Below, piece after piece: positions 1,327 to 57,687 of a stretch of DNA of 64,000 nt (position 1 is the stretch's first letter; the number at the start of each line of letters is the position of its first letter). The position numbers were made by a program, and so were the translations under genes. Location: the IMG/VR virus record IMGVR_UViG_3300025006_000001; one strand, written 5' to 3'. The notes beneath the pieces were generated by a model. That model saw only the letters and a program-made list of their open reading frames with translations, was not told the origin of the DNA and did not search any database. The DNA is from a virus.

Positions 1327-1623
1327 TTATGTTAGTGTATAAGCTCTAATATATTCTAATGTCTCTAAATTTCTATATAACTTAAAATATAGAAATTTAA
1401 TTACTTTACAATTAGAAATTCCACATAAACAATCGTCATAACCCAACCAAACCTCTACTGTGTTTTGTTTCAATGTAAAAAATCTGTTTTTTGGTTTTTC
1501 TTTATAAGAAATTACAAATACGTTAGTTCTTTTTTCTACAGTATCGAGATATTCCCAATTAGGCTTAAATACTTCTATCTCTTTAGCAGCTTTTTTTAAA
1601 ATAAACCATAATTCAGAACTCAC
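1327..1623 (-). CDS. Hypothetical small protein
   Basis: ORF track. GTG start. Packed within the minus-strand array. Confidence 0.5.
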   Translation of the reverse strand: MSSELWFILKKAAKEIEVFKPNWEYLDTVEKRTNVFVISYKEKPKNRFFTLKQNTVEVWLGYDDCLCGISNCKVIKFLYFKLYRNLETLEYIRAYTLT

Positions 1624-1625
1624 GA

Positions 1626-1793
1626 CTAAATTCCATTTTCCATGACGTAATATTTAACTAAAAAATGTGCAGTATTTTTACCAAATGTCTTTTCAATTAT
1701 GTTGAAATACAATTCTTTTAATAAAGAATTTTTAGTATTTCTAAAAAGAACTAAAATTTTTAATGAGGAATAAATGTAACTATGTTCAGACAT
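1626..1793 (-). CDS. Hypothetical small protein (55 aa, below ORF-track cutoff)
   Basis: ATG at 1793 overlaps the upstream stop region. Translates as MSEHSYIYSSLKILVLFRNTKNSLLKELYF... and fills an otherwise empty gap. Confidence 0.4.
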   Translation of the reverse strand: MSEHSYIYSSLKILVLFRNTKNSLLKELYFNIIEKTFGKNTAHFLVKYYVMENGI

Positions 1794-1980
1794 TTATGTC
1801 TAAATCCGGATCTAATAAATTTTCTTTATTGGCAAAATCATAATTACTCATATACATTACGCATTCTCCGTCTACCCAGGAACGTAATAGAACTTTTTCA
1901 TACATATTAGTATCTATTGTAAATATATTTAGCAAGTTTGCCTTCATTAGGTCCATACCAACTTGTAGACCACCCTTCAC
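1786..1980 (-). CDS. Hypothetical small protein
   Basis: ORF track. GTG start, or the internal ATG at M9. Confidence 0.45.
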   Translation of the reverse strand: MKGGLQVGMDLMKANLLNIFTIDTNMYEKVLLRSWVDGECVMYMSNYDFANKENLLDPDLDINV

Positions 1981-2009
1981 TAGTTCCTGTATGCTCTAAT
2001 GTATAGAAT

Positions 2010-2252
2010 TTATTCATATACGAGATCTAATCTCCACACATGATAGGCTAAGGGACTATATCCCCAACTTGAGCGGCCAGTTAAACTAATAATATAAGGT
2101 CTTAAGGCCTGACTTCTAGTTTTGTTATAATTAAAATATACAATAGGAAGATTTTTATAAAACAAACCAGCTAGACAGCTATTAAGATCTAAAACTTTAT
2201 ATGTAAGATCTTGTAATTTAAGTTTTTTATTCTTCATCAAACGAATAAACAT
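2010..2252 (-). CDS. Small protein, tandem paralog family 1
   Basis: Core LFYKNLPIVYF and downstream LTGRSSWGY, both shared with neighbours. Confidence 0.6.
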   Translation of the reverse strand: MFIRLMKNKKLKLQDLTYKVLDLNSCLAGLFYKNLPIVYFNYNKTRSQALRPYIISLTGRSSWGYSPLAYHVWRLDLVYE

Positions 2253-2481
2253 AAATCAAAGGATTTGTTCTAGGATAAAAATCTTGTAGAGTATCACTAT
2301 CAATATTTTTCTTAAAAGATTTATTATAAACACTACAAATTCTAGAAGAAAGAATATTACTCTTATCAATCATAATTGTAAGGTTAGCATGTTTAATTAA
2401 TGTAAATAAATAAGTATATTTACGCCCCAAATCTTCGTCTTCGGGCTGTTCATCTCTAAAATGATCTTCGATAAATAACAT
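2227..2481 (-). CDS. Hypothetical small protein
   Basis: ORF track. No family-1 core recognised. Confidence 0.5.
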   Translation of the reverse strand: MLFIEDHFRDEQPEDEDLGRKYTYLFTLIKHANLTIMIDKSNILSSRICSVYNKSFKKNIDSDTLQDFYPRTNPLIYVYSFDEE

Positions 2482-2700
2482 TTATTTTTCTCTCTTACAA
2501 AATTTATAGCTATTATGAGTTAACGTCTTGTAATCCCAACTATTTTCGCCTGTAAGTTTAATAATGATACTTCCAAAAGTGTCATTTACCTTACGAGGAT
2601 TTATAAATATACAAAGAGGTATATTTTTATAGGATACCCTACCCCATTGTTGACGATCTATGTCATCATATTGATAAATTAAATTATTTATATCTAGCAT
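2482..2700 (-). CDS. Small protein, tandem paralog family 1
   Basis: Core VSYKNIPLCIF and LTGENSWDY. Confidence 0.6.
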   Translation of the reverse strand: MLDINNLIYQYDDIDRQQWGRVSYKNIPLCIFINPRKVNDTFGSIIIKLTGENSWDYKTLTHNSYKFCKREK

Positions 2701-2918
2701 AGTTCATAAAAAGACCATATATCAGAATCATTCGTAGAGTTATAGGACCATTTGGTTACATTTGTAAGAGATTTAATATATCTATAAAACAAATTTTCCG
2801 GAAAACTTTCCGATTTACTTATCTGATTATCCCAAACAAAAATAGGAATATTTTTATAATAAAGTATATAATGATTTGGAGAAGTTTTTGTATTAAAATA
2901 AAAATCAGTTATTTCCAT
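2694..2918 (-). CDS. Small protein, tandem paralog family 1
   Basis: Core ILYYKNIPIFVW and LTNVTKWSY. Confidence 0.6.
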   Translation of the reverse strand: MEITDFYFNTKTSPNHYILYYKNIPIFVWDNQISKSESFPENLFYRYIKSLTNVTKWSYNSTNDSDIWSFYELC

Positions 2919-3136
2919 AAGCTATACTGTTTCGGTCCAATAACTTTTACTTGCCACATACTAGTTTCAGTTATTTTTTTTATAAGGTCACTATAGTCAG
3001 TTCCATAATTATATTCTTCTTTATTTTCTTTATATATAAAGATAGGTAAATTATTATAATGAACATAGTATTTTACTATGCCATAAGACTCATCTAAACA
3101 AAAATTTATATTATTTATATTTAATATTTTAAACCC
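2909..3136 (-). CDS. Family-1 paralog ORF without ATG/GTG/TTG start; possible -1 frameshift extension of 3121..3342, or a pseudogene
   Basis: Open frame translates ...IVKYYVHYNNLPIFIYKENKEEYNYGTDYSDLIKKITETSMWQVK.... It is absent from the ORF track because it has no canonical start. The frame opens at the motif GGGTTTAAAA. Confidence 0.4.
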   Translation of the reverse strand, partial: GFKILNINNINFCLDESYGIVKYYVHYNNLPIFIYKENKEEYNYGTDYSDLIKKITETSMWQVKVIGPKQYSLWK

Positions 3137-3342
3137 TTAGGACGAACTAATAAATAATAGGTATTTATAATTCTTTCATGGATAGTAGATTTTTTATCTA
3201 GAAGATCTCTTTGTAATTTAATACTAGTAAATTCTTCCGTAGTTCTAACTGCAAAAGGTATATTATTTATATACCAGATTTGATTGACTACTCGATTAGT
3301 GAAATCAGGGGAATAGTAATTAACGTATCCAAATCTAGTCAT
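3121..3342 (-). CDS. Small protein, tandem paralog family 1
   Basis: Core IWYINNIPFAVR. The 3' end reads CCT AAG GGT TTA AAA TAT TAA. Confidence 0.6.
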   Translation of the reverse strand: MTRFGYVNYYSPDFTNRVVNQIWYINNIPFAVRTTEEFTSIKLQRDLLDKKSTIHERIINTYYLLVRPKGLKY

Positions 3343-3689
3343 AAATTATTGTCGGTCAAAAGTAGGACTGAAATATCATCGTATTTAATAATTTTTTTGT
3401 CATAGTGCCAATACAATAAAGGAGTAAAAGCTGTTTCGTGTCTACTATAGCGATCCGAGCCACGAGATCTTAAAGCTGTTCTTAACTTAAACATATACAT
3501 GTGGTGCTTAACAATTTGCTTAAGATACATTTTTCCATCATAAGAACAATATCTACCTACTAAAACTGGTTGCTTACAACAATCGTTGTAATTAAAACTG
3601 TAATAACAGTCTTTATCTTTTACATAGTAAGCCCCTTCGGGGAAAACTTTTTTATAAAATTCTGGAATAGTTGCTACAATTGGGAACAT
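3339..3689 (-). CDS. Hypothetical Cys/Tyr-rich protein
   Basis: ORF track (116 aa). ATGA overlap with its neighbour. Confidence 0.55.
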   Translation of the reverse strand: MFPIVATIPEFYKKVFPEGAYYVKDKDCYYSFNYNDCCKQPVLVGRYCSYDGKMYLKQIVKHHMYMFKLRTALRSRGSDRYSRHETAFTPLLYWHYDKKIIKYDDISVLLLTDNNL

Positions 3690-3907
3690 TCATTTTTATT
3701 TCTTATTCTAAGATTTATTGAGTCTGCTTCAGTTATATCTAATAGACTATAAATATATTTTTTATATAAATCCCAACAATTTGGCTCTTCTATAAAAAAT
3801 GTTCCTACAGGTAGATTTGCCATATATAAAATAATACGGCTACGCTCTGATCGTTGATTACGATATGTTTCATAACAGATATATTTATGAAACTTCATAA
3901 TAATCAC
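3674..3907 (-). CDS. Small protein, tandem paralog family 1
   Basis: Core ILYMANLPVGTF. Confidence 0.55.
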   Translation of the reverse strand: MIIMKFHKYICYETYRNQRSERSRIILYMANLPVGTFFIEEPNCWDLYKKYIYSLLDITEADSINLRIRNKNECSQL

Positions 3908-4085
3908 TTAGTATTGGTTTAAAATAAAATTCAAAATATTTATTTGGAAATATTTTTTTAATTACAGACTTGTAGTCTCCCTTATAAGCAGTATTTAATG
4001 AAAAAAGAGGAACATTATTCCAATAAAACACACCATTCCACTTAGTGGGGTGAGAATTTGTATAAAAAATTCTATAATATAACAC
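3885..4085 (-). CDS. Small protein, tandem paralog family 1
   Basis: Core VFYWNNVPLFSL. Confidence 0.6.
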   Translation of the reverse strand: MLYYRIFYTNSHPTKWNGVFYWNNVPLFSLNTAYKGDYKSVIKKIFPNKYFEFYFKPILSDYYEVS

Positions 4086-4321
4086 TAGAAATATTGGACT
4101 TCCTTTTTTAGAAAAAATTTACGAGGAGTAGTTAGGCTCTCAACATAATCCCATTCAGTTTCTTCAGCAGAATTAGAAATTTTATTTACTAAATAATGAT
4201 TATCGTATAAATTACACTCGGTTCTAGAGTCTAGAATCCAAACAGTAACATTACCTAGAAGGTAATATTCAAACCAGCTACCTTTATGATCTACTATGTG
4301 AGTAGTTAAAATATTTTCCAT
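4085..4321 (-). CDS. Small protein, probable divergent family-1 member
   Basis: FEYYLLGNVTVWIL and EETEWDY resemble the two family motifs. Confidence 0.5.
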   Translation of the reverse strand: MENILTTHIVDHKGSWFEYYLLGNVTVWILDSRTECNLYDNHYLVNKISNSAEETEWDYVESLTTPRKFFLKKEVQYF

Positions 4322-4329
4322 AAATCTCC

Positions 4330-4354
4330 AAAAGAAAATAGCCCCTTGCGGGGC
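4330..4354 (-). terminator. Rho-independent terminator (minus strand)
   Basis: The minus strand reads GCCCC-GCAA-GGGGC followed by TATTTTCTTT. It lies directly after the stop of 4360..4530. Confidence 0.6.
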
Positions 4355-4359
4355 TTCTC

Positions 4360-4530
4360 TTACTCTTTTAATTTCAAGAGCAGAGACTTTGCCTTTTGAA
4401 GGCCCCAGTAACGTCCTGTGTCGGTTTCACAAGCCTTACCTGCCTTCTCGGCTCTGTCAATCCTGGCCTCCGTTCGAGAAATTTCTTTATCGAGCTTTTC
4501 CAGGACTTCCAGTTTATTCAGTTTTTTCAT
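4360..4530 (-). CDS. Small coiled-coil-like protein (56 aa), GC-richer than its surroundings
   Basis: AGGAGG lies 6 nt upstream of the ATG at 4530. Translates as MKKLNKLEVLEKLDKEISRTEARIDRAEKAGKACETDTGRYWGLQKAKSLLLKLKE. A terminator follows. Confidence 0.55.
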   Translation of the reverse strand: MKKLNKLEVLEKLDKEISRTEARIDRAEKAGKACETDTGRYWGLQKAKSLLLKLKE

Positions 4531-4588
4531 TGCTTACCTCCTGGACTAATAATAACATAGTCAGTAAGCTGTGTCTATTGCCAAATTG

Positions 4589-4810
4589 TTAACGGAATAA
4601 AGTAAATCCATCAGGAAGATATCCAGAAGCTTCTCCTTTAAACTTTTTTCCTTTTATAAGTTTAATGTATTCTACCCAAGGAGTTTCTAGTTCCCAACTT
4701 TCATTTTTTCGAATTCTTATTAGAATATTGTTGTAATAAAAATACTCTACCCAAGTATACTCGCCTGTATATTCATCAAGACTAGTGTAAATTTTTTTGA
4801 ATTTAATCAT
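4589..4810 (-). CDS. Small protein, tandem paralog family 1
   Basis: Core YFYYNNILIRIR. Confidence 0.6.
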   Translation of the reverse strand: MIKFKKIYTSLDEYTGEYTWVEYFYYNNILIRIRKNESWELETPWVEYIKLIKGKKFKGEASGYLPDGFTLFR

Positions 4811-5046
4811 GAATCACTTTTTACCATATTGTAATGATACACAGTATCTGAAAGTTCTGAGTTTAGTTCAAATCTAAAAGAAATATTACAAGTTCCTAAA
4901 AATTTATTAGGAAATAAAGCAGTTTCATAACTCCCATTGTCCTGATCAGTCTTAGTTAAGACAGCGTAAGGTATATTGGCATAATAAAGTATTTCAAACC
5001 AATCTTCTTGGCATTTATAATGAAGTTTACTATTTAAAACATTCAT
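4807..5046 (-). CDS. Small protein, tandem paralog family 1
   Basis: Core ILYYANIPYAVL. Confidence 0.6.
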   Translation of the reverse strand: MNVLNSKLHYKCQEDWFEILYYANIPYAVLTKTDQDNGSYETALFPNKFLGTCNISFRFELNSELSDTVYHYNMVKSDS

Positions 5047-5293
5047 AAATAATATTGGAATTAGAATTCCTAATTTTATAGCTGACTTTTTTAGAAGTCA
5101 AGTCTACAACTTCTAGCCCTGAATCTTTTTTTGAGAAACCACAAATTAATCCAATACTTAAAACACCTAAATACTCTGCAAAATCAAAAACATGTCTAAA
5201 TTTAGTATAATTAACTTCTTCAATAGACATAAGAATATTGTTATAATAAATATGCCAATGATTGTAGGCATTTAAAACCCAAAGCTTTCTCAT
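5030..5293 (-). CDS. Small protein, tandem paralog family 1
   Basis: Core HIYYNNILMSIE. Confidence 0.6.
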   Translation of the reverse strand: MRKLWVLNAYNHWHIYYNNILMSIEEVNYTKFRHVFDFAEYLGVLSIGLICGFSKKDSGLEVVDLTSKKVSYKIRNSNSNIIYECFK

Positions 5294-5652
5294 GGCCTAG
5301 TAGAAGTGCCTGCTGCATATTTCTTTTCTTGACGTTCTCTCCAAAAGGTTTGGTCTCTACTTAAACAATAAAGAAAAGCTTCTTCCGATTCTTTTTGAAG
5401 TGGATACTTCAAATGTTCTGCTAACGCATATAAATTTAATTGAACGTCCGTTAACTCTTTAGCTACAGGACCTTTTTCTTTATTATAGACAACATCTACT
5501 AGATGGGTAATTTTTTCTTTTGGTAAATCTAAAGCCTGACAAAGTTCTACAGCTTCTTCAAGAAAACGTAAGACCCGCTCCTCTTGTTTATAGGCAATAG
5601 CTCCAAAATTAGTTTTGGCCCAAGTAAGAATCGCTTTTTGAAAGTTTAACAT
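5290..5652 (-). CDS. MazG-like nucleoside triphosphate pyrophosphohydrolase
   Basis: RFLEEAVEL (EExxE) and ELTDVQLNLYALAEH helices, typical of small all-alpha MazG-type NTP-PPases (120 aa). Confidence 0.6.
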   Translation of the reverse strand: MLNFQKAILTWAKTNFGAIAYKQEERVLRFLEEAVELCQALDLPKEKITHLVDVVYNKEKGPVAKELTDVQLNLYALAEHLKYPLQKESEEAFLYCLSRDQTFWRERQEKKYAAGTSTRP

Positions 5653-5662
5653 AATTTAATCC

Positions 5663-5929
5663 TTAAAATTTATATAAATAAGTATTTTTGCCTTGAGAGG
5701 ACAGAACATAGTCCTTCTTAGTTATAAACTTTTTCACAAAATAACTATAATAACTTTGCTCATGTGGTCCAAAAATGGCTATTGTTTCTCCATAATATTT
5801 AATTATATTATATTGAATAAACGTATTAGGAACAATATTTTTAATATTAAGAGTAAAAGCGTCCTTATTGCACATATCTAAAATACGTGTCATAAAAATC
5901 ATTAAAATGTTTGACTTGTTTAGTTCCAA
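5663..5929 (-). CDS. Hypothetical small protein
   Basis: ORF track. The start is probably internal, because the annotated start overlaps 5865..6080. Confidence 0.45.
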   Translation of the reverse strand: MELNKSNILMIFMTRILDMCNKDAFTLNIKNIVPNTFIQYNIIKYYGETIAIFGPHEQSYYSYFVKKFITKKDYVLSSQGKNTYLYKF

Positions 5930-6080
5930 ACAATTTGTCTTGTCCTAAGAATTTTCTTAACATATCACACTCATTAAACCAATGTTTAGATATATATAAA
6001 GGAACTCCACCATAATAAAATACATAAAACGTAGTAGGGCATTGGCGGTATCTTCGTAAAAAGAAATTTTCTAATTTCAT
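5865..6080 (-). CDS. Small protein, tandem paralog family 1
   Basis: Core VFYYGGVPLYIS. Confidence 0.6.
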   Translation of the reverse strand: MKLENFFLRRYRQCPTTFYVFYYGGVPLYISKHWFNECDMLRKFLGQDKLFGTKQVKHFNDFYDTYFRYVQ

Positions 6081-6331
6081 AGATAAATAAAATCTCTATG
6101 AGGATATTTTGTAGTAGGTTGGTAATCTCTATCTGGTGACCATCCAAATTGTCTACCAAAAAATCTCTTTATTAGATTAGTTGAACTAGTTCCTGCCTTA
6201 TAGTATTCTAAATGAAGAGTAATATTGGCATAAGTTAATTTACAATAAGTAGTCTTACCGTCATCGTTAAACCAATAAGCTCTACAGTTTCTAGAAGCTA
6301 ACATTTTTTGTGCATCATTATATTTTTTCAT
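6077..6331 (-). CDS. Small protein, tandem paralog family 1
   Basis: Core KLTYANITLHLE and FGRQFGWSPD. Confidence 0.55.
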   Translation of the reverse strand: MKKYNDAQKMLASRNCRAYWFNDDGKTTYCKLTYANITLHLEYYKAGTSSTNLIKRFFGRQFGWSPDRDYQPTTKYPHRDFIYL

Positions 6332-6540
6332 CTTAAAAATAATCTATAAACATAGTAACTCTTAATGTCATGTGTATGATAATCATTCCAAGAATCTTCT
6401 TCGAATCCAGTTAATTTTTTAATTAACTTGGAATATTCCGAATGACTTTTAAGAAAAGTAAAAAAACAATTATTATAATAAAGTTTATGTAATCCTGAAT
6501 TTGATTCATTAAGCCAAAAAGAAAAATTTTCAATATTCAT
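6328..6540 (-). CDS. Small protein, tandem paralog family 1
   Basis: Core KLYYNNCFFTFL and LTGFEEDSWNDY. Confidence 0.6.
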   Translation of the reverse strand: MNIENFSFWLNESNSGLHKLYYNNCFFTFLKSHSEYSKLIKKLTGFEEDSWNDYHTHDIKSYYVYRLFLR

Positions 6541-6824
6541 GTCTTACGTCGAAGAATACTTTTATAAATAATGTATTCAGAATATCCTTTGTCTATTGTA
6601 ATAATTTGTCCATTTTCTAAATAATGCAAACAAAGTTTACTGGAAGTATAAACGCTTCCTGAAGGCAAGTTAAAAAACCTACAAAACCAAGCATTTACTT
6701 TATTTTTAGTATTTTTACAGCTACCAAATAAGATATTATGATAATATATACCATATTTATTTTTATTAGAAGGTAAAGTCCTTATAAACCAAGGGCCTTC
6801 TTTTATAGTAGATTTATTTATCAT
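6537..6824 (-). CDS. Small protein, tandem paralog family 1
   Basis: Core GIYYHNILFGSC. Confidence 0.55.
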   Translation of the reverse strand: MINKSTIKEGPWFIRTLPSNKNKYGIYYHNILFGSCKNTKNKVNAWFCRFFNLPSGSVYTSSKLCLHYLENGQIITIDKGYSEYIIYKSILRRKT

Positions 6825-7102
6825 TAAAAAAGGGCACTGTGTCTATATAAAGGATATCCAGCATCGAGCCCTCTCCCTGTAGTAGACCAAGCTATTTTAC
6901 GTAAATAATAAACATTCTCACTTAAGTCATAAAAAAAACTATGATGCCTGGGCTGACCTTTTTTTAGTCTAAAATTCAGAGAATAGAATCTATTGTCTGA
7001 TTCTTTACCAAAAGCATCTAATTTAAAATAAGGCAAAGTTCTGATTAAGTATTGTAAATAAGGTAAAAGTTCTTCATGAGGAATTCTACAAGGAATTAAC
7101 AT
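6824..7102 (-). CDS. Hypothetical small protein (first gene of the array)
   Basis: ORF track (92 aa). Confidence 0.5.
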   Translation of the reverse strand: MLIPCRIPHEELLPYLQYLIRTLPYFKLDAFGKESDNRFYSLNFRLKKGQPRHHSFFYDLSENVYYLRKIAWSTTGRGLDAGYPLYRHSALF

Positions 7103-7158: not shown

Positions 7159-8577
7159 TTAAGCTGCTTCTTTTGCTTTAGCCTCTTCAGCAGCCTTTAC
7201 TCGAGCTTGATAGGCTTCTTCTCGAGCATCTTTCTTTTCTTTCCAGACCTTATATCCCGGATCCAATTCCTTCGGTTCAGGAGCGGGATTGTAACAAGCC
7301 CAGACTTCTTCGTAAAGCTTACGAGAAATTTCCGAAGGAATATTAGGATCTCCATTGTGACGCCCACGATGCTGACGTTCACGGAAGGGATAACTATTTC
7401 CGTCCCGACGAATTTCAAGACAAGAATTAATTACAGTTCCATTTTCTTTCCAGAAAGAAATTAGCTTCTGATTCTGTTGGAAATCATAGGTTCCGATACA
7501 ATGGCCTTGAATTCGACCCCACATACGAAGATCAGGTTTACTCACCGGCAATTTGATAGTATATCCGTCAACTTCAGTTCCGTTAAGACGTTTTTCATCC
7601 TCAGTCCAAGTATAAGGCTTAGACTCAAGCTTAGTTTGCTCGTCTACTACCAAGTTAGAGATTGCGTGGTGATAAGCCACGAAATTTTCCACCTTAGGCA
7701 AGACAGCATCCTTATTCAGTTCAAGAAGCTGGGTTTGTAGCTTATCAATATCATTAACTGCTGCATAAAATTCACCAACCTTATTAGTGCTAAGTGCATT
7801 TTCACAGTCAAGACAGAATCGGCGGAAATTATCTTTGTTAACAAACTTCAACTTGGTGAAATCGCCATTAGCGCCTTTATGTTCGGTGATTTTAACCAAA
7901 GTATCGAAGTAGTTCAACATGAAGTTGATATCAACTTCAGCCTTAAGGAAGAACTCAAACAATTTACACAGCTTGATAAGCTTATCAATATCCTTCGCTT
8001 GTTCGCGAATAAGCGCCTTAAGACGAGGAGATTTAATATTGTAATTGTCAAAGAATTCGGTCATATTTTCAAAACGAAGTTCTTCATATAGAGAGAAATT
8101 TTCGTAAGGAACATTTTTCTTGAATTCAAAATCCTTCAATACGGGGTTAATGTTGTCATGAAGATCAGCCCAAGTAACCTTATTAAGCTTCATGAAAATT
8201 TCATTGAAGATGGAGGTATTAAGCATCCATTCCTTCATCTTTGCGTAAGTATTATCCTGGTAAGTATCAGTGCCCTGGTTTTCGTAGCACTTTACTTTTC
8301 CTTTTTCCCAAATAAACTTAACTTTGATTTCTTCGTTAGTCCCCATGTGCATAGTAATATTGGTTCGCTTAGTGCGAAGACGTTCAATAAACATGCGGAT
8401 AATGATTTCTTTACTATCGCCATGCATAATTTCGAAATAACGAGTAGCTGCGTTAGGATTTTTCTCGGGAAGATAATTCATTACCAATCCCATACGTTCC
8501 TTATCTGGGAGCGAGTTATACATGTTGCAAAGTTCTTTAGAGTTCATTAGTTTCTTCCTTTTTTCTTTTTTACCCAA
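7159..8577 (-). CDS. PcfJ-like domain protein with Lys/Ala/Glu-rich C-terminal tail
   Basis: The C-terminal region GRIQGHCIGTYDF...LISFWKENG...CLEIRRDG...RQHRGRHNGDP matches the recalled PcfJ-like pattern (HCxxxY ... T.E ... Q.RG..N). Confidence 0.45.
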   Translation of the reverse strand: MGKKEKRKKLMNSKELCNMYNSLPDKERMGLVMNYLPEKNPNAATRYFEIMHGDSKEIIIRMFIERLRTKRTNITMHMGTNEEIKVKFIWEKGKVKCYENQGTDTYQDNTYAKMKEWMLNTSIFNEIFMKLNKVTWADLHDNINPVLKDFEFKKNVPYENFSLYEELRFENMTEFFDNYNIKSPRLKALIREQAKDIDKLIKLCKLFEFFLKAEVDINFMLNYFDTLVKITEHKGANGDFTKLKFVNKDNFRRFCLDCENALSTNKVGEFYAAVNDIDKLQTQLLELNKDAVLPKVENFVAYHHAISNLVVDEQTKLESKPYTWTEDEKRLNGTEVDGYTIKLPVSKPDLRMWGRIQGHCIGTYDFQQNQKLISFWKENGTVINSCLEIRRDGNSYPFRERQHRGRHNGDPNIPSEISRKLYEEVWACYNPAPEPKELDPGYKVWKEKKDAREEAYQARVKAAEEAKAKEAA

Positions 8578-9020
8578 AAACTTTCTGGGTTTATACGCAT
8601 TAATCTAGGCTTTAATAAATTACAGCCATAATCGTGTATGACTATATTATTTTTATATAGAGATAATTGATTTGGATGTCCGTCCCCATAACCATAAGGC
8701 ACTTCTTTAGGTAAATTTTCTAACTTAAATTCTGCTAATGGAGTTGTTTTTTCCATTAGTAAAAATCTACCACAATGAGAAATATCTATAACAGGGACTA
8801 GTAATTTATTAATTACTGATACTTCACGTAACTTGCTCCAGTTCTCAAATTCATTTTTATTTTCATGAAGGCACTTTTCTCTAGGAATGATTTTTTTAAT
8901 CACTAAACGACTATCAGGGATATAGTCGTAAACTTCTCTATAAAAACCTTTACCTATTAAAGTTCCTAAAACTTCTTTTGCTTTAAAAGATTTAACTTGT
9001 TGTGTCCAGTAATAGGTCAC
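8547..9020 (-). CDS. Small protein-kinase-like fold protein (tentative)
   Basis: GKGFYREVY (Gly-loop-like), VIKK (Lys), and IVIHDYGCN (DFG-like). GTG start. Confidence 0.3.
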   Translation of the reverse strand: MTYYWTQQVKSFKAKEVLGTLIGKGFYREVYDYIPDSRLVIKKIIPREKCLHENKNEFENWSKLREVSVINKLLVPVIDISHCGRFLLMEKTTPLAEFKLENLPKEVPYGYGDGHPNQLSLYKNNIVIHDYGCNLLKPRLMRINPESFWVKKKKGRN

Positions 9021-9102
9021 TGGAGGTATACTACTTTCTTCGTGTTACAACCGTGTAGCGAAGTTGTTAAAACTTTTTACTTTTTCTTCAGTTAACAAAA
9101 AT

Positions 9103-9315
9103 TTAACATGTAAAAATTGGCTTCCAACCTGAACACGCTGGAGGTAACGAAATAGAGTTTTCTAGTTCTACTTCTTCTATAGCTACATGTAAAGAATTTA
9201 CTCTAAATTCTTCTATTTTTCCTAACTCATTCTCACAGGTAACAACTATATCTTCATTAGTTCGTATAACAGTTAGTTTAGTGTTTTCTTTTAGCAGTAA
9301 TTCTAGTTTAGTCAT
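9103..9315 (-). CDS. Hypothetical protein
   Basis: ORF track. Confidence 0.5.
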   Translation of the reverse strand: MTKLELLLKENTKLTVIRTNEDIVVTCENELGKIEEFRVNSLHVAIEEVELENSISLPPACSGWKPIFTC

Positions 9316-9351
9316 AGTAATAAAAAGGGCTACTAACTTAATAGTAGCCTT

Positions 9352-9579
9352 CTAGCCCAACCACTTCTCTTCTAAAATTTTTATTTCTTCTAGGTGGTTT
9401 ATGTTAAATTCAGGTCTCGAATCTGGAACACTGGATACGGAATTTTTTCGAAACCAATCAGTCTCTGAATTATCTTCTAAATGCTTTTTTAATTCATCTT
9501 TATGAGGAAGATAAAGATCGACTACGTGTATTTCCGTTTTACACGTTGTTACAGGAACTTCTAGCCTTATTAAGGTCAT
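9352..9579 (-). CDS. Hypothetical protein
   Basis: ORF track. Confidence 0.5.
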   Translation of the reverse strand: MTLIRLEVPVTTCKTEIHVVDLYLPHKDELKKHLEDNSETDWFRKNSVSSVPDSRPEFNINHLEEIKILEEKWLG

Positions 9580-9730
9580 TTAGTCTCTTTATTTCTTTAA
9601 TGTTCTCGTCATTAGAGATCAGTGATCGAACTTTAGATAAAAATTTCTCCGGACGAGAATCTATTTCCATAAGTTCGATCACTGATAATTTAATATTTAT
9701 ACTCTGACTATCAGAATACCAATATTTCAT
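9539..9730 (-). CDS. Hypothetical protein
   Basis: ORF track. Confidence 0.45.
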   Translation of the reverse strand: MKYWYSDSQSINIKLSVIELMEIDSRPEKFLSKVRSLISNDENIKEIKRLNDLNKARSSCNNV

Positions 9731-9737
9731 TATATAG

Positions 9738-9965
9738 TTATCGAGTTGCCATCATATTTTTCATGTGACTTTCGACTTCTGCCTGACTCATTTCTCGAGC
9801 ATTTACAACATAATACTTAACACCCTTAGTAGTGTTAAGGCCTACAGCAGGAACTGCTCCTTCAGGAACTTCGTAATTATTGAAAGCCTGGAGAAAATTA
9901 TGAATTACATCGTCATTATTTCCAAGAGCTTTTTGTGCGAGTTCAGTTTCTTTTGAGAAAAACAT
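9738..9965 (-). CDS. Hypothetical protein
   Basis: ORF track. Lies downstream of the promoter-like region 10050-10078. Confidence 0.5.
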   Translation of the reverse strand: MFFSKETELAQKALGNNDDVIHNFLQAFNNYEVPEGAVPAVGLNTTKGVKYYVVNAREMSQAEVESHMKNMMATR

Positions 9966-10049
9966 GTTTTACCTTTTCTTTACTTTATGTTGAGAGTTTT
10001 TTGGCTCAAAAAGAGCTTACAGTTAAACTGACTTTAAAACAAGATCTTT

Positions 10050-10078
10050 TTTGTAAACTGTTTGTTAACTTTTGTTAA
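10050..10078 (-). promoter_or_regulatory. Sigma70-like promoter of the TTGACA-AAAGTTAACAAAC family (minus strand)
   Basis: The minus strand reads TTAACA-aaagttaacaaacagtt(17)-TACAAA. Same architecture as 50989-51017 and 52042-52070. TTGTTAAC boxes at 10062-10069 and 10072-10079. Confidence 0.4.
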
Positions 10079-10116
10079 CATATTTTCTTGCTTCCCTATC
10101 ATGATCATGTGCGCGA

Positions 10117-10389
10117 TCAACACTCAGGAGCTATAGCAGAGAACTTGTTTTCCATTTCTTGAATAACACTATTGTTTAAAGCATCTTCAAAAAGTTTGAT
10201 AGATTCGGGAGTGAAGACTTTAGCCATATTTTCAATCATTCGATCCGGTGCTCCATCAAATATTTCATAATAGAAATCATCGAAATAAACAAGACTGTCA
10301 TAAACAGTCCTAGTACTTTCTGGCATTTCTAAATCATTTTCTAAGCAATGGTAAATTTCTTTACCAATTTCGTTATATTCCAGCATCAT
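10117..10389 (-). CDS. Highly acidic small protein
   Basis: By hand count, about 20 Asp/Glu against 6 Lys/Arg in 90 aa. Confidence 0.5.
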   Translation of the reverse strand: MMLEYNEIGKEIYHCLENDLEMPESTRTVYDSLVYFDDFYYEIFDGAPDRMIENMAKVFTPESIKLFEDALNNSVIQEMENKFSAIAPEC

Positions 10390-10591
10390 GTTCTTTCATT
10401 GGAATTCTTATTACTTTAAATATTGTATAATCGGCTTGTTTAAAGTATTTATCTGAAGATAATTTTTTAATATTATATTTCCAACTAACTGCTTTATCGT
10501 AAGAATCAAAAGCAGTTACTTCAAAATTTTCTTTTCCTATACTAGGATACGATGTTTGTCTTAATATTTCATAACCAAAAACACTACCCAT
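10373..10591 (-). CDS. Hypothetical protein
   Basis: ORF track. Confidence 0.5.
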   Translation of the reverse strand: MGSVFGYEILRQTSYPSIGKENFEVTAFDSYDKAVSWKYNIKKLSSDKYFKQADYTIFKVIRIPMKEHDAGI

Positions 10592-10829
10592 TATTTACAA
10601 AATCATAATTCCATTTTACAGTAGATTCTTCAAAATTTTCAATAGGAATTTTTTCTATATTACATTTGTAAATATAAGGAATATTATTAAATCTTATATA
10701 CGATTTTTTAGTTTCAGAACTTTTAGCTTGTTGATAAAGCGTTTCAATATAAGTAGCAATCTCGTGATCTTTTACATTAGTTGTTATTGTTTGCATGTTT
10801 AAACCTATCGTCTTTCTCAGGAAATTCAT
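10584..10829 (-). CDS. Hypothetical protein
   Basis: ORF track. Confidence 0.5.
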   Translation of the reverse strand: MNFLRKTIGLNMQTITTNVKDHEIATYIETLYQQAKSSETKKSYIRFNNIPYIYKCNIEKIPIENFEESTVKWNYDFVNNG

Positions 10830-11193
10830 CCATAAATGTAGCTAAAGTTAAGCAATGCCAGGCGCAGGCTATCATGTGTTTACTAGGAGAATTATTGCCT
10901 GGAGTTTCTAAATCTAAGTTTTCTCCATTCCAAAATTGGTTCAAATGTCTTTGGAGAGCGTCAAAAGATAACGACCAATCATAACCTTTTCTCCAGTTAT
11001 GTTTGGAATATTTTCCAACTCCCTTACCATAATGTTCAGCAAGTTCCCACAAAGCTTTTTGTGGGATTAAAGAAAATTGAGCTAATTTAGAACCTTTTTC
11101 TCCTCCAGTATCTGGATCTTTGATCCTTACTTCTGTTGGGATAACTGTTGATTTCTGTGAAGAATTTGAATCATTTGTTTCAACTGTATCCAA
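10777..11193 (-). CDS. dATP/dGTP diphosphohydrolase N-terminal-like (PF18909/DUF5664-like) protein
   Basis: DTGGEKGSKL..IPQKALWELAEHYGKGVGKYSKHNWRKGY..SFDALQRHL..HMIACAWHCLTLATF matches the recalled family pattern. Confidence 0.45.
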   Translation of the reverse strand: MDTVETNDSNSSQKSTVIPTEVRIKDPDTGGEKGSKLAQFSLIPQKALWELAEHYGKGVGKYSKHNWRKGYDWSLSFDALQRHLNQFWNGENLDLETPGNNSPSKHMIACAWHCLTLATFMDEFPEKDDRFKHANNNN

Positions 11194-11717
11194 GTGTAAG
11201 CTCTACTTCCTTTATTTTCTTTATTGTATAAATAGTTGAAAATAATATAATTCTTTCCAGCTTTTTCTAAACTAGATAATACTTCTGGAGAATCATCTAT
11301 ATAAAGATCTGCTGTAATTTCTTCTTTATTTTTCACAAAATGAATTTCATCATAATGAACATTACGATCTGAAAGCCATTTAATAGTTACTGCTTTAATT
11401 TGTTCTCTCATTTCAGTTGAGAACCAGTCAGAACTTACTCTTTGAGTGATAATTTTAATTATATGACCTTCTTTGGCTAAGTGGTCTAATTGATTTAGAG
11501 CTGAAGCAAACGGCTTCATTTGCGAAGTTAAATCTTCATTAATAAATTTAGTATGATAAGTTTTAAATTGATCTAAAGTCAATCCCCAACTTTCAAAATT
11601 CCAGTCTTCAGGTTCAGGAAGAGAACCTGAAGTCAAATTGCGATCTTTTTCAACTAAGTCTTTAATTACCCCAGTGTAATCCGCAATTACATTATCGAAA
11701 TCAATTCCTAGAATCAT
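11127..11717 (-). CDS. HAD-superfamily 5'(3')-deoxyribonucleotidase-like protein
   Basis: N-terminal GIDFDNVIADY (DxDxV motif I) and YIDDSPE (motif IV-like). Confidence 0.6.
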   Translation of the reverse strand: MILGIDFDNVIADYTGVIKDLVEKDRNLTSGSLPEPEDWNFESWGLTLDQFKTYHTKFINEDLTSQMKPFASALNQLDHLAKEGHIIKIITQRVSSDWFSTEMREQIKAVTIKWLSDRNVHYDEIHFVKNKEEITADLYIDDSPEVLSSLEKAGKNYIIFNYLYNKENKGSRAYTWIQLKQMIQILHRNQQLSQQK

Positions 11718-12028
11718 GTTTGTTCAGATTGCTCCTTAAGTGCGTTTCTACGTTTACGTCTGCTAATATTATCTCTTTCGTTACGACACAAACGGCAAGT
11801 TTTATATTTTTTCCCCCAACCATTTATTCTAATTATAAAATTAGCTACATTTTTCTCATGATTGCATCTTTTATTTCTAAGAGGTGTCGTTAAATTTTCT
11901 ACATATCTATCTACGTAGTCATAGTCTAATTGAATATCTCTCCAAACATGATAATGTTTGTTACATAAACCTCTAGCTTTATGAATTTCTTTACAATTAG
12001 GAACATTGCACAATCTTTTCTCAGCCAT
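11714..12028 (-). CDS. Cys-rich zinc-binding protein
   Basis: CNVPNCKEIHKARGLCNKHYHVW (GLCxxHY motif) plus C-terminal CNH..CRLC. Confidence 0.5.
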   Translation of the reverse strand: MAEKRLCNVPNCKEIHKARGLCNKHYHVWRDIQLDYDYVDRYVENLTTPLRNKRCNHEKNVANFIIRINGWGKKYKTCRLCRNERDNISRRKRRNALKEQSEQT

Positions 12029-12267
12029 TAGAAAATCCTCACAGCAGGAATATACCCGTCTTCTCTGGGATTTGTGCCTTCAGCTTCCTTACCTGAAAGA
12101 CAATCCTCATCTTCTGGGTGCCACCACAAACCTTCAATTTCAGTAGCTAATTCTGCATTTGGAAGCAAAACAACAGCTTCTTTTACATAAGGATCTTTTT
12201 CAATCCAAATATTAATTAAATCTCTTAATTCTTCTAAAGTAAATTCAGTTTCCATAATTAATAGCAA
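12028..12267 (-). CDS. Acidic hypothetical protein
   Basis: ORF track. Confidence 0.5.
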   Translation of the reverse strand: MLLIMETEFTLEELRDLINIWIEKDPYVKEAVVLLPNAELATEIEGLWWHPEDEDCLSGKEAEGTNPREDGYIPAVRIF

Positions 12268-13022
12268 ATTCCGTCCACAGTAAATTTATTATCTTTAACT
12301 TGAATAGGATGTAAAAACCAATGCTTGTCTCCGGCTTCATCTTCGCAACAAGTTCCCATACCGAAACCTTGTTGCCAATCTGGATCGCGATCACCCATAT
12401 ATTTTGCAGAAATTTCCGGATCTGGATCAGCTAAATTTCCAAGTTCCATCCAGGCCCCATCGGCGTCATGAATTAAACCTAATCTATGGGTATGTCCAGA
12501 AACACCTGAACGATATTTATTAGATTTTAATTCTCCTCTAGCAGAATTTCCGCTTAATCCTCTACAAATAGATCCGTGAGTAACTTTTAATCCGTCTACG
12601 ACTAATCGTTCTCTATAAGGCTTCCATTTGATATTATATTTCTTTAATTCAAATAGTTCAGGAAGTGTTAAACAATTCAGAGGAAGTAATTCAGGTGCTT
12701 TTCGAACAAGATATCTCTCAAATCGAAGTTCATGATTTCCTTCAACATAAGTAATTTCAGTTTTAGCACCTGCAGATTTTCTTAGACGAGAAAAGAAAGC
12801 TTTTGCTTCTACAAATGTCTCTATAGTATCTGAGGTTTGTCCAGCAATTTTATCATGCGAACTAAAATCATCGAAACAAACCAAGTCTCCAATGTGGAAA
12901 ATCTTTTTAAATTTTTTCTTTTCAATTAACTTAAAAAGGCTTCCCTTCTCTCCAGTAATTACTTTATTGTTTACTGGAATATGTGTATCACTTATAAAAA
13001 GTGCTTGATACAGGGTTTTCAT
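12258..13022 (-). CDS. Calcineurin-like metallophosphoesterase
   Basis: Motifs FISDTHIP, GDLVCFDD, GNHE and GHTH in canonical order. Confidence 0.7.
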   Translation of the reverse strand: MKTLYQALFISDTHIPVNNKVITGEKGSLFKLIEKKKFKKIFHIGDLVCFDDFSSHDKIAGQTSDTIETFVEAKAFFSRLRKSAGAKTEITYVEGNHELRFERYLVRKAPELLPLNCLTLPELFELKKYNIKWKPYRERLVVDGLKVTHGSICRGLSGNSARGELKSNKYRSGVSGHTHRLGLIHDADGAWMELGNLADPDPEISAKYMGDRDPDWQQGFGMGTCCEDEAGDKHWFLHPIQVKDNKFTVDGICY

Positions 13023-13137: not shown

Positions 13138-13575
13138 TTGCAAGAAGTCAAGAGTTCTGATAAAATATTTTTAGGTCAGGTGGAAAAGTTAAAAATGAAT
13201 ATGCCTTCAGAGGTTATTCCAAGTTTAGAAAAACATTTAAAAATCTATTCTTTTTTAAAAAAGAAGTTTACAGATAAGTTAGATGTTATAAGCATGAACT
13301 CTAAGTCTAAGTATCCTTTAGATATCATGTTAGAGTATCAAAAAGTTCTAGACCAAAGAACCTTCACTGAAATCGCATATCTGTTAGGCATGTCGCCTAA
13401 GCGCCCCTACAATCATGTATACAACAAACATCTATCAGAATGGGCCCAAGCTAAAGACTATGTAAGACTCCTGTATGATTTTGATAACCAAATGCAAAAA
13501 GTAATTAATTATTGTATCACTAATAAAGTTAATATTAATATTTGGTATAAATACATTGAAAAACTTGGAGAATAA
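13138..13575 (+). CDS. Hypothetical protein with possible HTH (start uncertain: TTG at 13138, or ATG at M19/M21)
   Basis: RTFTEIAYLLGMSPKRPYNHVY is HTH-like. It is the first plus-strand gene after a divergent promoter region. Confidence 0.5.
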   Translation: MQEVKSSDKIFLGQVEKLKMNMPSEVIPSLEKHLKIYSFLKKKFTDKLDVISMNSKSKYPLDIMLEYQKVLDQRTFTEIAYLLGMSPKRPYNHVYNKHLSEWAQAKDYVRLLYDFDNQMQKVINYCITNKVNINIWYKYIEKLGE

Positions 13576-13928
13576 TGGCCATTAAGGTAGATATTCGAAG
13601 ACAAGTCCTTGAGCGGGATAACAATACTTGTCAAAAATGCGACAAAGTTCACCGGAAATTACAATTACATCATATTGTTCCACAACGACTAGACGGATCT
13701 GACCTTCCACATAATTTAATTAGTCTTTGTGCGAAATGCCATCATCGCTGGCATTGTTTAGAATCAAAATTAGATATTCGTATGCAAGAAGAGAGAACAG
13801 TCTCTTATTTTTATATCTGGGTGAAGGAAAGAGAAATAGATGTGGACGTTTCATTGGGGGACCGTTGGGTCTGGAAAGAGTTTAGACTTATTAAAAAATT
13901 ATTTCGACAAAAAAAGAAATCATCCTAA
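13575..13928 (+). CDS. HNH endonuclease
   Basis: CQKCDK...LQLHHIVPQ...NLISLCAKCHHRWH. Confidence 0.75.
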   Translation: MAIKVDIRRQVLERDNNTCQKCDKVHRKLQLHHIVPQRLDGSDLPHNLISLCAKCHHRWHCLESKLDIRMQEERTVSYFYIWVKEREIDVDVSLGDRWVWKEFRLIKKLFRQKKKSS

Positions 13929-16018: not shown

Positions 16019-16203
16019 TTAAATGGGACCCTAGCAATAAAATTTTTCTTCATAAAGTAATAAAAAGATCTCCCAAAGAAATAAATCATCCTTGGGAGTC
16101 TTTTCTTTTTTGTGGGCATGTAGTAAAACATACTAAAAAAAGATCTTTAGGTTATTTAAAATGTTCTATTTGTAGAAAAGAAAGATATAAAATTTATTTA
16201 TAA
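16000..16203 (+). CDS. Family-2 paralog ORF lacking a canonical start codon
   Basis: Open frame ..IKWDPSNKIFLHKVIKRSPKEINHPWESFLFCGHVVKHTKKRSLGYLKCSICRKERYKIYL. No ATG/GTG/TTG. Lies in the -1 frame relative to 15776..16018. Confidence 0.35.
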   Translation, partial: LISENLIKWDPSNKIFLHKVIKRSPKEINHPWESFLFCGHVVKHTKKRSLGYLKCSICRKERYKIYL

Positions 16204-16445
16204 TGTTAATCAAACTCACTCCTAAAAATAATAAACTACACAGAGTCCTTAAATATGAAAAATGCATAGGAAGTTCTTACAGGTATACGTTTACTTTAAT
16301 ATGTGGACATAGTTATAATATTTGGATATGGTATGGAGATCGAACGTCTGGCCTTAATAAAAAATATAGATATTGTCCAAATTGTGCTAAAGTTTGGAAA
16401 CCCTCTAATCCTCCTAGATCTGGGGTTTATTGTGCTCCCTATTAA
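16203..16445 (+). CDS. Small Cys-rich protein, paralog family 2
   Basis: TLICGHSYNIW...YRYCPNCAKVW. Confidence 0.55.
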   Translation: MLIKLTPKNNKLHRVLKYEKCIGSSYRYTFTLICGHSYNIWIWYGDRTSGLNKKYRYCPNCAKVWKPSNPPRSGVYCAPY

Positions 16446-16632
16446 AATTTGTTGGACTGGAAATCTTAAATTTAGAGTTTTAAAACAACAAAAAATTTAT
16501 TATGAAAAAAAATATCATTACCAAACTAAAAGTTATTTAACTTGTGGTCATGTTAGATACTATTCAGGATCAGTTGATCTTAACAAAGATAGATATGCTA
16601 TATGTATAGAAGGATGTTCGAGTCTTTACTAA
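16432..16632 (+). CDS. Small Cys-rich protein, paralog family 2 (GTG start chosen; the ORF-track start at 16303 is rejected)
   Basis: YLTCGHVRYYSG...YAICIEGC. Confidence 0.45.
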   Translation: MLPIKICWTGNLKFRVLKQQKIYYEKKYHYQTKSYLTCGHVRYYSGSVDLNKDRYAICIEGCSSLY

Positions 16633-16835
16633 TGCTTTATATTATAAAAAGAAAAACCAAGTTCTCTAAAGAACATAAAAGATTTTTAATTTATAAAAAA
16701 ATATTTAAAGGCTGTAATTATTATGATATTTACTTAAGTTGTGGACACAAAAGAAATTGGATACATCAAAGTATTCTTAATTATTTAACAAATAAAAATT
16801 ATTACTATTGTGACCAAGGGTGTTCTAATATATAA
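16632..16835 (+). CDS. Small Cys-rich protein, paralog family 2 (internal ATG, TAATG overlap)
   Basis: YLSCGHKRNWIH...YYYCDQGC. Confidence 0.5.
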   Translation: MLYIIKRKTKFSKEHKRFLIYKKIFKGCNYYDIYLSCGHKRNWIHQSILNYLTNKNYYYCDQGCSNI

Positions 16836-18792: not shown

Positions 18793-19068
18793 TTAGATAT
18801 TTCTTAATAAAATCATTAATTTTGCATCATACCTTTGTATATCTTCTCCTATATAAGTATATAAATCTTTACTTATTTGATAATAAATATACATTTTATC
18901 CTTATCATCGCTTGTGTCTTTTGTGTAGCAAAGAATTCCCTTACCTTTTCTATTAAGGTGGTGTCCTCCATGACAAAGAACATGTTCATACCCCCTTTTA
19001 GCAAGTCTGGTTATAGAATAGTCTTCGTGTTTTTTTAACTTACCTAGATATAAAAATATTGGAATCAT
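18793..19068 (-). CDS. Small protein, paralog family 3
   Basis: ILCYTK...MYIYYQISKDLYTYIGE. Confidence 0.55.
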   Translation of the reverse strand: MIPIFLYLGKLKKHEDYSITRLAKRGYEHVLCHGGHHLNRKGKGILCYTKDTSDDKDKMYIYYQISKDLYTYIGEDIQRYDAKLMILLRNI

Positions 19069-57588: not shown

Positions 57589-57664
57589 GGGAAGGTAGCT
57601 CAGAGACTAGAGCGGCTCCGTGAAAAAGAGCAGGTCGGTGGTTCAATCCCATCCTTTCCCACCA
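57589..57664 (+). tRNA. tRNA-Phe(GAA), encoded CCA, canonical T-loop
   Basis: GGGAAGG-TA-GCTC-AGAGACTA-GAGC-G-GCTCC-GTGAAAA-AGAGC-AGGTC-GGTGG-TTCAATC-CCATC-CTTTCCC-A-CCA. C31:A39 mismatch. No GG in the D-loop. Confidence 0.8.
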
Positions 57665-57687
57665 GAACGTGGTTATTCACTTCAATT

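Follow-up and report, generated by a model that had tools for sequence, protein, structure and literature searches.

The 64,000-nucleotide (nt) stretch of virus record IMGVR_UViG_3300025006_000001, hereafter the window, carries on its minus strand, between positions 2010 and 6824, 15 copies of one family of small proteins: 14 called open reading frames (ORFs) of 66-95 amino acids (aa) and one frame that has no start codon. The copies constitute one genuine family of tandem paralogs, with a similarity beyond chance, and on the evidence of sequence searches and predicted structures the family is new and an orphan. It accounts for 15 of the 24 frames in a longer minus-strand run (1327-7102) composed of 23 back-to-back ORFs of 55-120 aa and the startless frame. 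A first-pass annotation of the window had described at least 15 paralogs here, a count that is correct only when the startless frame is taken together with the 14 ORFs; all 17 peptide strings that it quoted were found on the minus strand within 2010-6824, and its ORFs, coordinates and lengths agree with ours. Its extent of 2010-6824 for the array stands, but its outer limits of 1327 and 7102 take in non-family ORFs at both ends. By analogy, the most reasonable reading of the array is that of a host-takeover or anti-defence arsenal.

Common ancestry of the copies

Comparisons were made over the 266 ORFs of the window with a non-array set of 233 ORFs, and leave-one-out profiles excluded the ORF being tested; single ORFs are named below by the lower of their two coordinates. 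All-against-all BLASTP linked 2010 with 2482 (E=1e-6) and with 2694 (E=2.6e-4), and weaker matches formed a web around 2694 that contained array ORFs only. A hidden Markov model (HMM) of three members recruited 6328, after which the five next-best of the 266 ORFs were all array ORFs. With leave-one-out profiles, 11 of the 14 candidates scored above every non-array ORF (n=233), the exceptions being 5030, 3674 and 6077, for which one, four and 14 non-array ORFs, respectively, scored higher, and the nine interspersed ORFs of the array stayed at background. Such a comparison does not pass arrays automatically, since in a run of tiny ORFs on the metagenomic contig L003, described below, only two of 19 pass. 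The ORFs 5663-5929, 6824-7102 and 3339-3689 and the other array ORFs were considered as extra members and rejected, all having background scores.

The shared motif is in excess also when counted directly. A strict regular expression for it gave 47 matches in the six frames of the window, 10 of them in the 4.8-kb minus-strand array against about 1.8 expected, an excess with a Poisson probability of roughly 1e-5 by our own arithmetic. Two motifs had been proposed for all members; the N-proximal core does run across the copies, but the second, LTG..SW.Y, is recognisable in about seven of them only.

Members of the family and the genes between them

The 15 copies, all on the minus strand, are the following.

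6537-6824, minus strand: copy 1, 95 aa, core GIYYHNILFGSC; leave-one-out 10.1 bits, E=0.015, above all 233 non-array ORFs
6328-6540, minus strand: copy 2, 70 aa, KLYYNNCFF ... LTGFEEDSWNDY; member of the tight subfamily
6077-6331, minus strand: copy 3, 84 aa, KLTYANITLHLE; the weakest in leave-one-out
5865-6080, minus strand: copy 4, 71 aa, VFYYGGVPLYIS
5030-5293, minus strand: copy 5, 87 aa, HIYYNNILMSIE; borderline, with leave-one-out 7.9 bits, one non-array ORF higher and an iterative HMM E=0.036
4807-5046, minus strand: copy 6, 79 aa, ILYYANIPYAVL
4589-4810, minus strand: copy 7, 73 aa, YFYYNNILIRIR; leave-one-out 21.6 bits, E=4e-6
4085-4321, minus strand: copy 8, 78 aa, YYLLGNVTVWIL ... 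EETEWDY; leave-one-out 10.9 bits, no non-array ORF higher
3885-4085, minus strand: copy 9, 66 aa, GTG start, VFYWNNVPLFSL; leave-one-out 12.5 bits, no non-array ORF higher
3674-3907, minus strand: copy 10, ILYMANLPVGTF; borderline, 77 aa from GTG, or 74 aa from the ATG at 3898 (the public call)
3121-3342, minus strand: copy 11, 73 aa, IWYINNIPFAVR; leave-one-out 10.5 bits, no non-array ORF higher
2909-3136, minus strand: copy 12, startless frame of 75 codons, YVHYNNLPIFIY ... LIKKITETSMW; stop codon at 2909-2911
2694-2918, minus strand: copy 13, 74 aa, ILYYKNIPIFVW ... LTNVTKWSY; leave-one-out 27.1 bits, E=6e-8, hub of the similarity network
2482-2700, minus strand: copy 14, 72 aa, VSYKNIPLCIF ... 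LTGENSWDY; BLASTP E=1e-6 against 2010, best structural model
2010-2252, minus strand: copy 15, 80 aa, LFYKNLPIVYF ... LTGRSSWGY

The non-family elements of the run, some of which carry a Shine-Dalgarno (SD) motif, are these.

6824-7102, minus strand: 92-aa ORF with SD (GGGA), first gene of the coupled block that feeds copies 1-4; leave-one-out -0.7 bits
5663-5929, minus strand: ORF of 79-88 aa within the array, with a core-like stretch IKYYGETIAIFG that has no profile support; leave-one-out -0.9 bits
5290-5652, minus strand: interrupting gene of 120 aa with its own SD, weakly MazG/PRA-PH-like; leave-one-out 0.0 bits
4340-4577, minus strand: moron-like unit of promoter-like site, SD, 56-aa gene and intrinsic terminator, splitting the array into two units
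3339-3689, minus strand: 116-aa ORF within the array; leave-one-out -0.9 bits
2227-2481, 1786-1980, 1626-1793 and 1327-1623, minus strand: small distal ORFs interleaved with copy 15; background leave-one-out scores and no Pfam match

The interruptions are as the first-pass annotation described them, except that its label of MazG-like for 5290-5652 has weak support: the Pfam PRA-PH match (E=0.039) reaches 14.8 bits against a cutoff of 21.3 bits, no match was obtained against PDB sequences, and the sole homolog found, 51% identical, belongs to an unrelated phage. The GC-richer mini-gene with its own terminator that it reported was recovered. The gene lies at 4360-4530 (44% GC) and encodes 56 aa, rich in lysine and glutamate and predicted to be helical; it is preceded by a promoter-like site at 4577-4549 (TAGACA-17-TATTAT with TG) and a strong SD (AGGAG) and ends at an intrinsic terminator (4355-4340) made of the stem AGCCCC/GGGGCT and a T-run. 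A GC content of 44% next to neighbours of 22-30% GC suggests that the unit was acquired separately. An Rfam scan of the array found no RNA family.

Predicted fold and protein properties

AlphaFold2 was run with the 14-sequence alignment on two members, giving for 2694-2918 a model with a predicted local distance difference test (pLDDT) score of 67.6 and for 2482-2700 one with a pLDDT of 88.3 and a predicted template modelling score of 0.73. Both models share the order of elements β1, β2, β3, helix, β4, β5, so that a two-layer α/β domain (β-β-β-α-β-β) is the reproducible prediction. When the alignment is mapped on the model, the core motif aromatic-x-h-Y-Y-x-N-h-P-h (h, hydrophobic) corresponds to the end of β2, a tight turn and β3, the LTG of the second motif caps the C-terminus of the helix, SW.Y is β4, and a conserved Y-x-h is β5. 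The Asn of the turn (N26) is kept in 93% of the copies, and P28 and G51 are conserved as well. The conserved columns are hydrophobic or aromatic and alternate as for one buried face, to which the turn residues N, P and G are added; no constellation of acidic, His, Cys or Ser residues is conserved in the family alignment, and it holds no catalytic or metal-binding signature. As judged from the models, conservation is that of the scaffold only, with the surfaces left free.

The proteins have no transmembrane-like runs and are soluble. They contain 9.7% Tyr against 4.3% in the large proteins of the window, and their aromatic content (Tyr, Phe and Trp) is 18.9% against 10.1%; isoelectric points (pI) range from 4.9 to 9.8 and net charges from -5 to +10. 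A small β-rich domain with so many aromatic residues, and a pI above 8.4 in 10 of 14 copies, would suit small nucleic-acid-binding proteins, either RNA or single-stranded DNA chaperones or gene-specific transcript regulators that work through aromatic and basic contacts. We regard this as quite unlikely. Conservation extends to no basic and no exposed aromatic position, and those aromatics that are conserved alternate in a pattern that fits a buried core; the pI is clearly acidic in three copies (4.9-5.1) and near-neutral in another (6.9); and neither Pfam nor Foldseek returned an OB, CSD, KH, HTH or similar match.

Translational coupling and the startless copy

In the run, 20 genes have starts that overlap or adjoin the stop codon before them, several by 1 or 4 nt, and seven have starts separated from it by at least 10 nt. 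An SD-like motif precedes all seven separated starts and one of the 20 overlapping or abutting ones (Fisher p=9e-6), a distribution indicating that the host uses SD-led initiation and that the family genes rely on translational coupling, as the first-pass annotation had proposed from the overlapping stops and starts. The start of copy 1, for example, shares 1 nt with the upstream stop and lacks an SD, while copy 8, the first gene past the terminator, has its own (GGAG). The array would be expressed as polycistronic coupled blocks, in which the SD-like motif is confined to the gene that follows each intergenic gap. Family genes that lack an SD start a few nt from the preceding stop, and would consequently depend on the ribosomes handed over by that gene.

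The ORF list had a minimum of 40 aa, and YVHYNNLPIFIY of copy 12 fell outside any such ORF, in an apparent gap of 202 nt (2919-3120) between called ORFs. From 3136 down to 2912, nevertheless, an uninterrupted frame of 75 codons displays the full family architecture without any ATG, GTG or TTG, and 2 nt past the upstream gene's stop codon stands an ATA in the place of the paralogs' ATG. The copy is absent from the annotation of the public assemblies. By its sequence it may be a recently formed pseudogene, or else a gene whose translation begins at a non-canonical codon or by reinitiation. The end of this frame and gene 2694 overlap by 7 nt; that gene lacks an SD motif, and if copy 12 were untranslated the four downstream genes would lose their coupled ribosome supply. 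This dependence on coupling favours, we infer, continued translation of copy 12 or a very recent loss.

Tight coupling of genes lacking an SD is also the classic layout for proportional synthesis of subunits. The paralogs could accordingly be imagined as subunits of a single hetero-oligomeric assembly, or as homo- or hetero-dimers, with their stoichiometry set by the coupling and acting jointly on one process; by strand alternation, Y23, F32 and position 68 would be placed on the sheet face opposite the helix, a possible interface. Such an assembly seems rather improbable. Fifteen subunits at 15-30% identity, with charges of -5 to +10, are hard to fit into one conserved complex, copy 12 is startless, and unrelated ORFs and a terminator break up the array. 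Moreover, the family is absent where relatives keep the neighbouring genes, which argues that it is dispensable for core phage functions.

Searches by sequence and by fold

That the family had not been recognised in the first-pass annotation is borne out by profile searches of protein collections and by Foldseek with both AlphaFold2 models, none of which gave a real match. Searched individually against Pfam-A, PHROGs v4 and NCBIfam, the 14 ORFs gave best E values of 0.026-0.07, far below the cutoffs, and no family of these libraries was matched by more than one member. The family profile had no match at E<=10 among 177,635 PDB sequences. A word-indexed search of 5.8 billion proteins recovered nothing but the proteins of the window itself and a single strain variant; when 1.84 billion cluster representatives were searched exhaustively with HMMER, the only matches were the 14 training proteins or their variants and one artefact. 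The artefact, P0008 (1038 aa, E=2e-18 over 14 stretches), was rejected, as it consists of about 14 near-identical repeats of 73 aa, a single unit of which scores 9-12 bits (E about 2e4 to 1.5e5); it is a chance match amplified by repeats. Copy 14, compared with translations of 50,697 isolated phage genomes, had chance matches only (E>=0.2). Against the PDB, with E<=1e-3 and a template modelling (TM) score above 0.5 as the criterion, the best Foldseek match of the pLDDT-88 model had E=0.27, TM 0.38 and a root-mean-square deviation of 7 A, and that of the weaker model E=2.3; in BFVD, searched with the weaker model only (pLDDT 67.6) and with E<=1e-3 as the criterion, the best match had E=0.76. 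A resemblance of the core to a KTSC-like pattern Y-x-Y-x-x-V-P was rejected, since Pfam, KTSC included, gave no match and a strand, not a helix, is predicted after the motif.

The domain might still be a very remote, unrecognised member of a characterised small-protein family. Small domains outrun HMMER, the 14-sequence profile is shallow, and the searches were profile-sequence comparisons plus Foldseek on two libraries. With no library family matched by more than one member, all matches far below cutoffs, an empty PDB profile search at E<=10, and structural matches no better than those above from a pLDDT-88 model and, in BFVD, from the weaker one, we consider such a membership decidedly unlikely.

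Relatives of the locus

Directly upstream of the array lies a gene that served as a conserved anchor for locating relatives of the locus.

7159-8577, minus strand: PcfJ-like gene, 462-472 aa; Pfam PcfJ E=3e-5; homologs 40-56% identical

Four diverged homologs of this gene (40-56% identity) were found on short metagenomic contigs, two of which run on into small same-strand genes. IMG/VR and GTDB genomes yielded nothing useful for relatives of the locus, and JGI metagenome contigs only an already known contig of 2.9 kb. The family profile found no convincing member in the relatives' contigs, in 7.5 kb beyond the window, or in the rest of the window. In the closest relative, L005, the ORF 2730-2978 reached E=2.7e-4 with the 14-sequence profile but was rejected, the alignment covering half of the domain and falling to E=1.5 with a 15-sequence profile; core-like strings (KLIYGNLIIMV, AYYARGLPYTI..TLTG) also occur in further L005 ORFs, whose scores of 4-6 bits are not significant.

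On L003 (Logan SRR17187268_1187474), downstream of a 40%-identical PcfJ-like gene and thus in the same neighbourhood and strand, about 19 back-to-back Tyr-rich ORFs of 43-69 aa occupy 7281-12259 (plus strand), with several ATGA overlaps and a truncated second PcfJ-like copy mid-run (8883-9494). Many of these tiny ORFs begin with MNI(V/A)F and end with hhL, with a recurring junction, TTATGAATATAGCT, and two pairs are significant paralogs (E=5.6e-12 and 1e-4). The run was rejected as a second single family because only two of its 19 ORFs pass leave-one-out, and the shared termini may reflect the recurring junction sequence. With the family of the window it has an hhalign probability of 0.1%.

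The relatives' contigs indicate that the neighbourhood is a zone of fast turnover for tiny genes in the clade and that the family is confined to this phage. The position downstream of the PcfJ-like gene could even be an expansion hotspot at which the clade has repeatedly made and diversified arrays of tiny proteins, the family of the window and the L003 run being independent outputs. We think this unlikely; if it were true, the locus would hold a germline-encoded repertoire of binders on an unseen α/β fold, expressed together by coupling against variable host defences. As a separate observation, L004 (2523-5815) and L007 (912-4142) each carry two tandem PcfJ-like copies with a 151-aa gene between them, in surroundings with NADAR, YAcAr-like (a faint match) and dGTP_diPhyd_N genes, that is, an accessory region with a nucleotide and ADP-ribose theme.

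Age of the duplications and strain variation

The paralogs are 15-30% identical in protein sequence. At the DNA level, direct repeats measure only 20-44 nt (70-88% identity) and lie over the motif-coding core, from which it follows that most of the expansion is old; Tandem Repeats Finder detected nothing with a gene-sized period in the array, and high-identity tandem units, which together with junction microhomology would mark a recent segmental amplification (an accordion in its expanded state), were not found. Similarity does not correlate with distance along the array (p=0.40). A tighter, younger subfamily is formed by 2010, 2482, 2694, the 2912-3136 frame and 6328.

Synonymous sites are saturated among the paralogs, and the available strains are 99.5-100% identical. 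Conservation of the core alone, with free surfaces, is compatible with diversifying selection. Two variant contigs, L012 (window 1715-2461) and L013 (window 3120-3741), differ from the window by six single-nucleotide polymorphisms (SNPs), all non-synonymous and five of them in family genes (A28T, G29S and R60S in 2010-2252; R3T and F4V in 3121-3342). These six are an anecdote and may include errors, as L012 has about 1.3x coverage and L013 is 622 bp long with its three differences within 21 nt.

Extreme divergence, a startless copy, absence in relatives and six of six strain differences being non-synonymous would also be expected if the array were mostly non-functional, a neutral relic left by an earlier amplification (a collapsed accordion) and drifting towards loss, in which no more than one or two copies were still useful. 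Yet 15 frames of 66-95 codons are open on one strand in DNA of 22-30% GC that is rich in stops, where a random frame of 75 codons would be open with a probability of about 1e-3 by our own arithmetic. The core and turn residues are kept in all copies, one member has a confident predicted fold, the coupled junctions are preserved, and the SNP contigs are weak for the reasons given. A relic is therefore distinctly improbable.

The phage and its gene neighbourhood

The window is part of an AT-rich phage genome of about 145 kb (about 30% GC), near-identical assemblies of which occur in many metagenomes (an ENA scaffold of 144,949 bp, a JGI contig of 145,021 bp; the queried protein in 43 collection blocks). 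Two other assemblies, L001 and L002, are 100% identical to the window across 12.7 kb, and the sample of the array variant L013, SAMN05509839, was traced to a study of a thiocyanate-degrading bioreactor (PMC5458468). Megablast of the window against 50,697 phage records gave no match, and the phage PolA is only about 25% identical to that of the nearest isolates; by sequence, the phage is remote from every isolate. Up to 21 contigs carry records of window proteins; the longest measures 444,944 bp, about three times the genome of about 145 kb, and could be a concatemeric assembly, a chimeric assembly or a larger replicon.

A fusion of a uracil-DNA glycosylase (UDG) with PolA, a DnaB-like helicase with a LAGLIDADG insert, RecA, and SbcCD-like and SNF2 proteins are encoded in the window, a set that identifies a large phage of virulent type. 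The fusion, a family-A DNA polymerase with an N-terminal domain of the UDG superfamily, lies at 47971-50940 (minus strand), and the helicase at 42434-44980 (minus strand), its LAGLIDADG_3 domain being a likely intein or homing-endonuclease insertion. Six Rfam tRNA matches cluster at 57589-60060 (plus strand), where ARAGORN calls tRNA-Phe only, and ARAGORN calls tRNA-Leu(taa) at 63371-63455 (plus strand); several of the Rfam matches may be divergent or degenerate phage tRNAs.

The array sits in a long leftward gene block together with MazZ-like dGTP_diPhyd_N, NT5C, phosphoesterase and PcfJ-like genes. The nucleotide-pool genes of this block are at 10777-11193, 11127-11717, 12258-13022 and 5290-5652 (all minus strand), the set comprising a MazZ-like dATP/dGTP diphosphohydrolase N-terminal domain (E=2.9e-29), an NT5C deoxynucleotidase (E=4.5e-21), a calcineurin-like phosphoesterase and the weakly MazG-like gene; it hints at remodelling of the deoxynucleotide pool or at modified DNA. 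Judged by their sequences, the neighbours of the array would suit a block of accessory and nucleotide-metabolism genes of early or middle type, which does not prove timing. Outside the array, paralog pairs include two HNH-type endonuclease-like ORFs (13575-13928, plus strand, and 42101-42421, minus strand; E=4e-9) and two pairs of neighbouring small ORFs (16203-16445 and 16602-16835, plus strand; 18793-19068 and 19071-19316, minus strand; E=1.7e-5 and 2.6e-4). Therefore, duplication of small genes is not restricted to the array.

Proposed function

The lack of a catalytic signature, the conservation of the core alone and the variable surface charge suggest that the copies are non-enzymatic binders, while the accessory, nucleotide-pool location and the precedents of T4 tifA and SPO1 point to host takeover or counter-defence. 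Each copy would then be a binding module that recognises a different protein of the host, of a defence system or of a competitor during infection, and the array a duplicated and diverged repertoire. Argued as it is by analogy, action of the copies as non-enzymatic binders against host or defence targets is a tentative proposal, to which we give a little less than an even chance.

Several observations weigh against it. Neither in sequence nor in fold does any member resemble a known anti-defence or takeover protein, and in general libraries, the only ones searched for this, the array ORFs had no Pfam or PHROG match of anti-defence type and no HTH domain that would mark an adjacent Aca-type regulator. 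Sigma-70-like promoters are not enriched (57 against 47 +/- 6.1 in shuffles). Four copies are backed by the profile and the core motif only. The startless state of copy 12 suggests that at least some decay is tolerated, and coupling, being typical also of the subunits of one complex, would favour the hetero-oligomeric alternative.

New anti-defence and host-control proteins come mainly from the accessory regions of phages, which are usually mixtures of unrelated orphan genes. The array instead offers a natural series of variants on one scaffold, so that one structure would explain all 15 members, and the way in which a phage diversifies a binder could be read from a comparison of their targets. 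Should the members prove to act on host defences, the array would supply new inhibitors in compact form and serve to test duplication and divergence in the arms race between phages and hosts; lacking that role, they would be one more lineage-specific orphan family.

Comparison with known systems

Accessory clusters of small genes are familiar from large phages, and the array is one of them, set apart mainly by the 15-fold expansion of a single fold. To our knowledge, a tandem family this large is unusual for a phage. Phage T4 overcomes the ToxIN system by tandem segmental amplification of tifA, an 85-aa inhibitor gene located in an island of small counter-defence genes (eLife 2022, PMC9391042). 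This dmd-tifA-adfA anti-toxin-antitoxin island resembles the array in its small (about 85 aa) non-enzymatic proteins, in its clustering on one strand and in tandem duplication, which in T4 was demonstrated experimentally as a way for a phage to raise or vary a counter-defence gene. However, the genes of the island are mutually unrelated and the amplified copies identical and recent, whereas here 15 ancient, diverged copies of one fold are found, and the family has no similarity in sequence or structure to TifA, Dmd or AdfA.

The host-takeover module of phage SPO1 comprises 26 small early genes, the products of which bind and inhibit or redirect single host proteins, as Gp53 does with ClpCP and Gp46 with HU (PMC6873191, PMC8892312). 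As in SPO1, a dense run of small genes, clustered on the same strand, is present in a large phage of virulent type. The SPO1 module, though, which has mapped early promoters in the terminal redundancy, mixes mostly unrelated genes, while here a single family provides 15 of 24 frames.

In its makeup, with at least three adjacent same-strand paralogs of supported common ancestry, the array is a diverged tandem multigene family, and as such it is like the multigene families found in large DNA viruses of eukaryotes. Among these are MGF110, MGF360 and MGF505 of African swine fever virus. For poxviruses, amplification of K3L is described as a genomic accordion (Elde et al. 2012, as cited within PMC9391042). 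The families and accordions of these viruses share with the array the tandem arrangement of duplicated, diverged small paralogs; theirs vary in copy number between lineages and are thought, or have been shown, to counter host immunity. Among the near-identical strains available of this phage no variation in copy number was observed, and the virus realm, the host and the proteins are different, with no homology.

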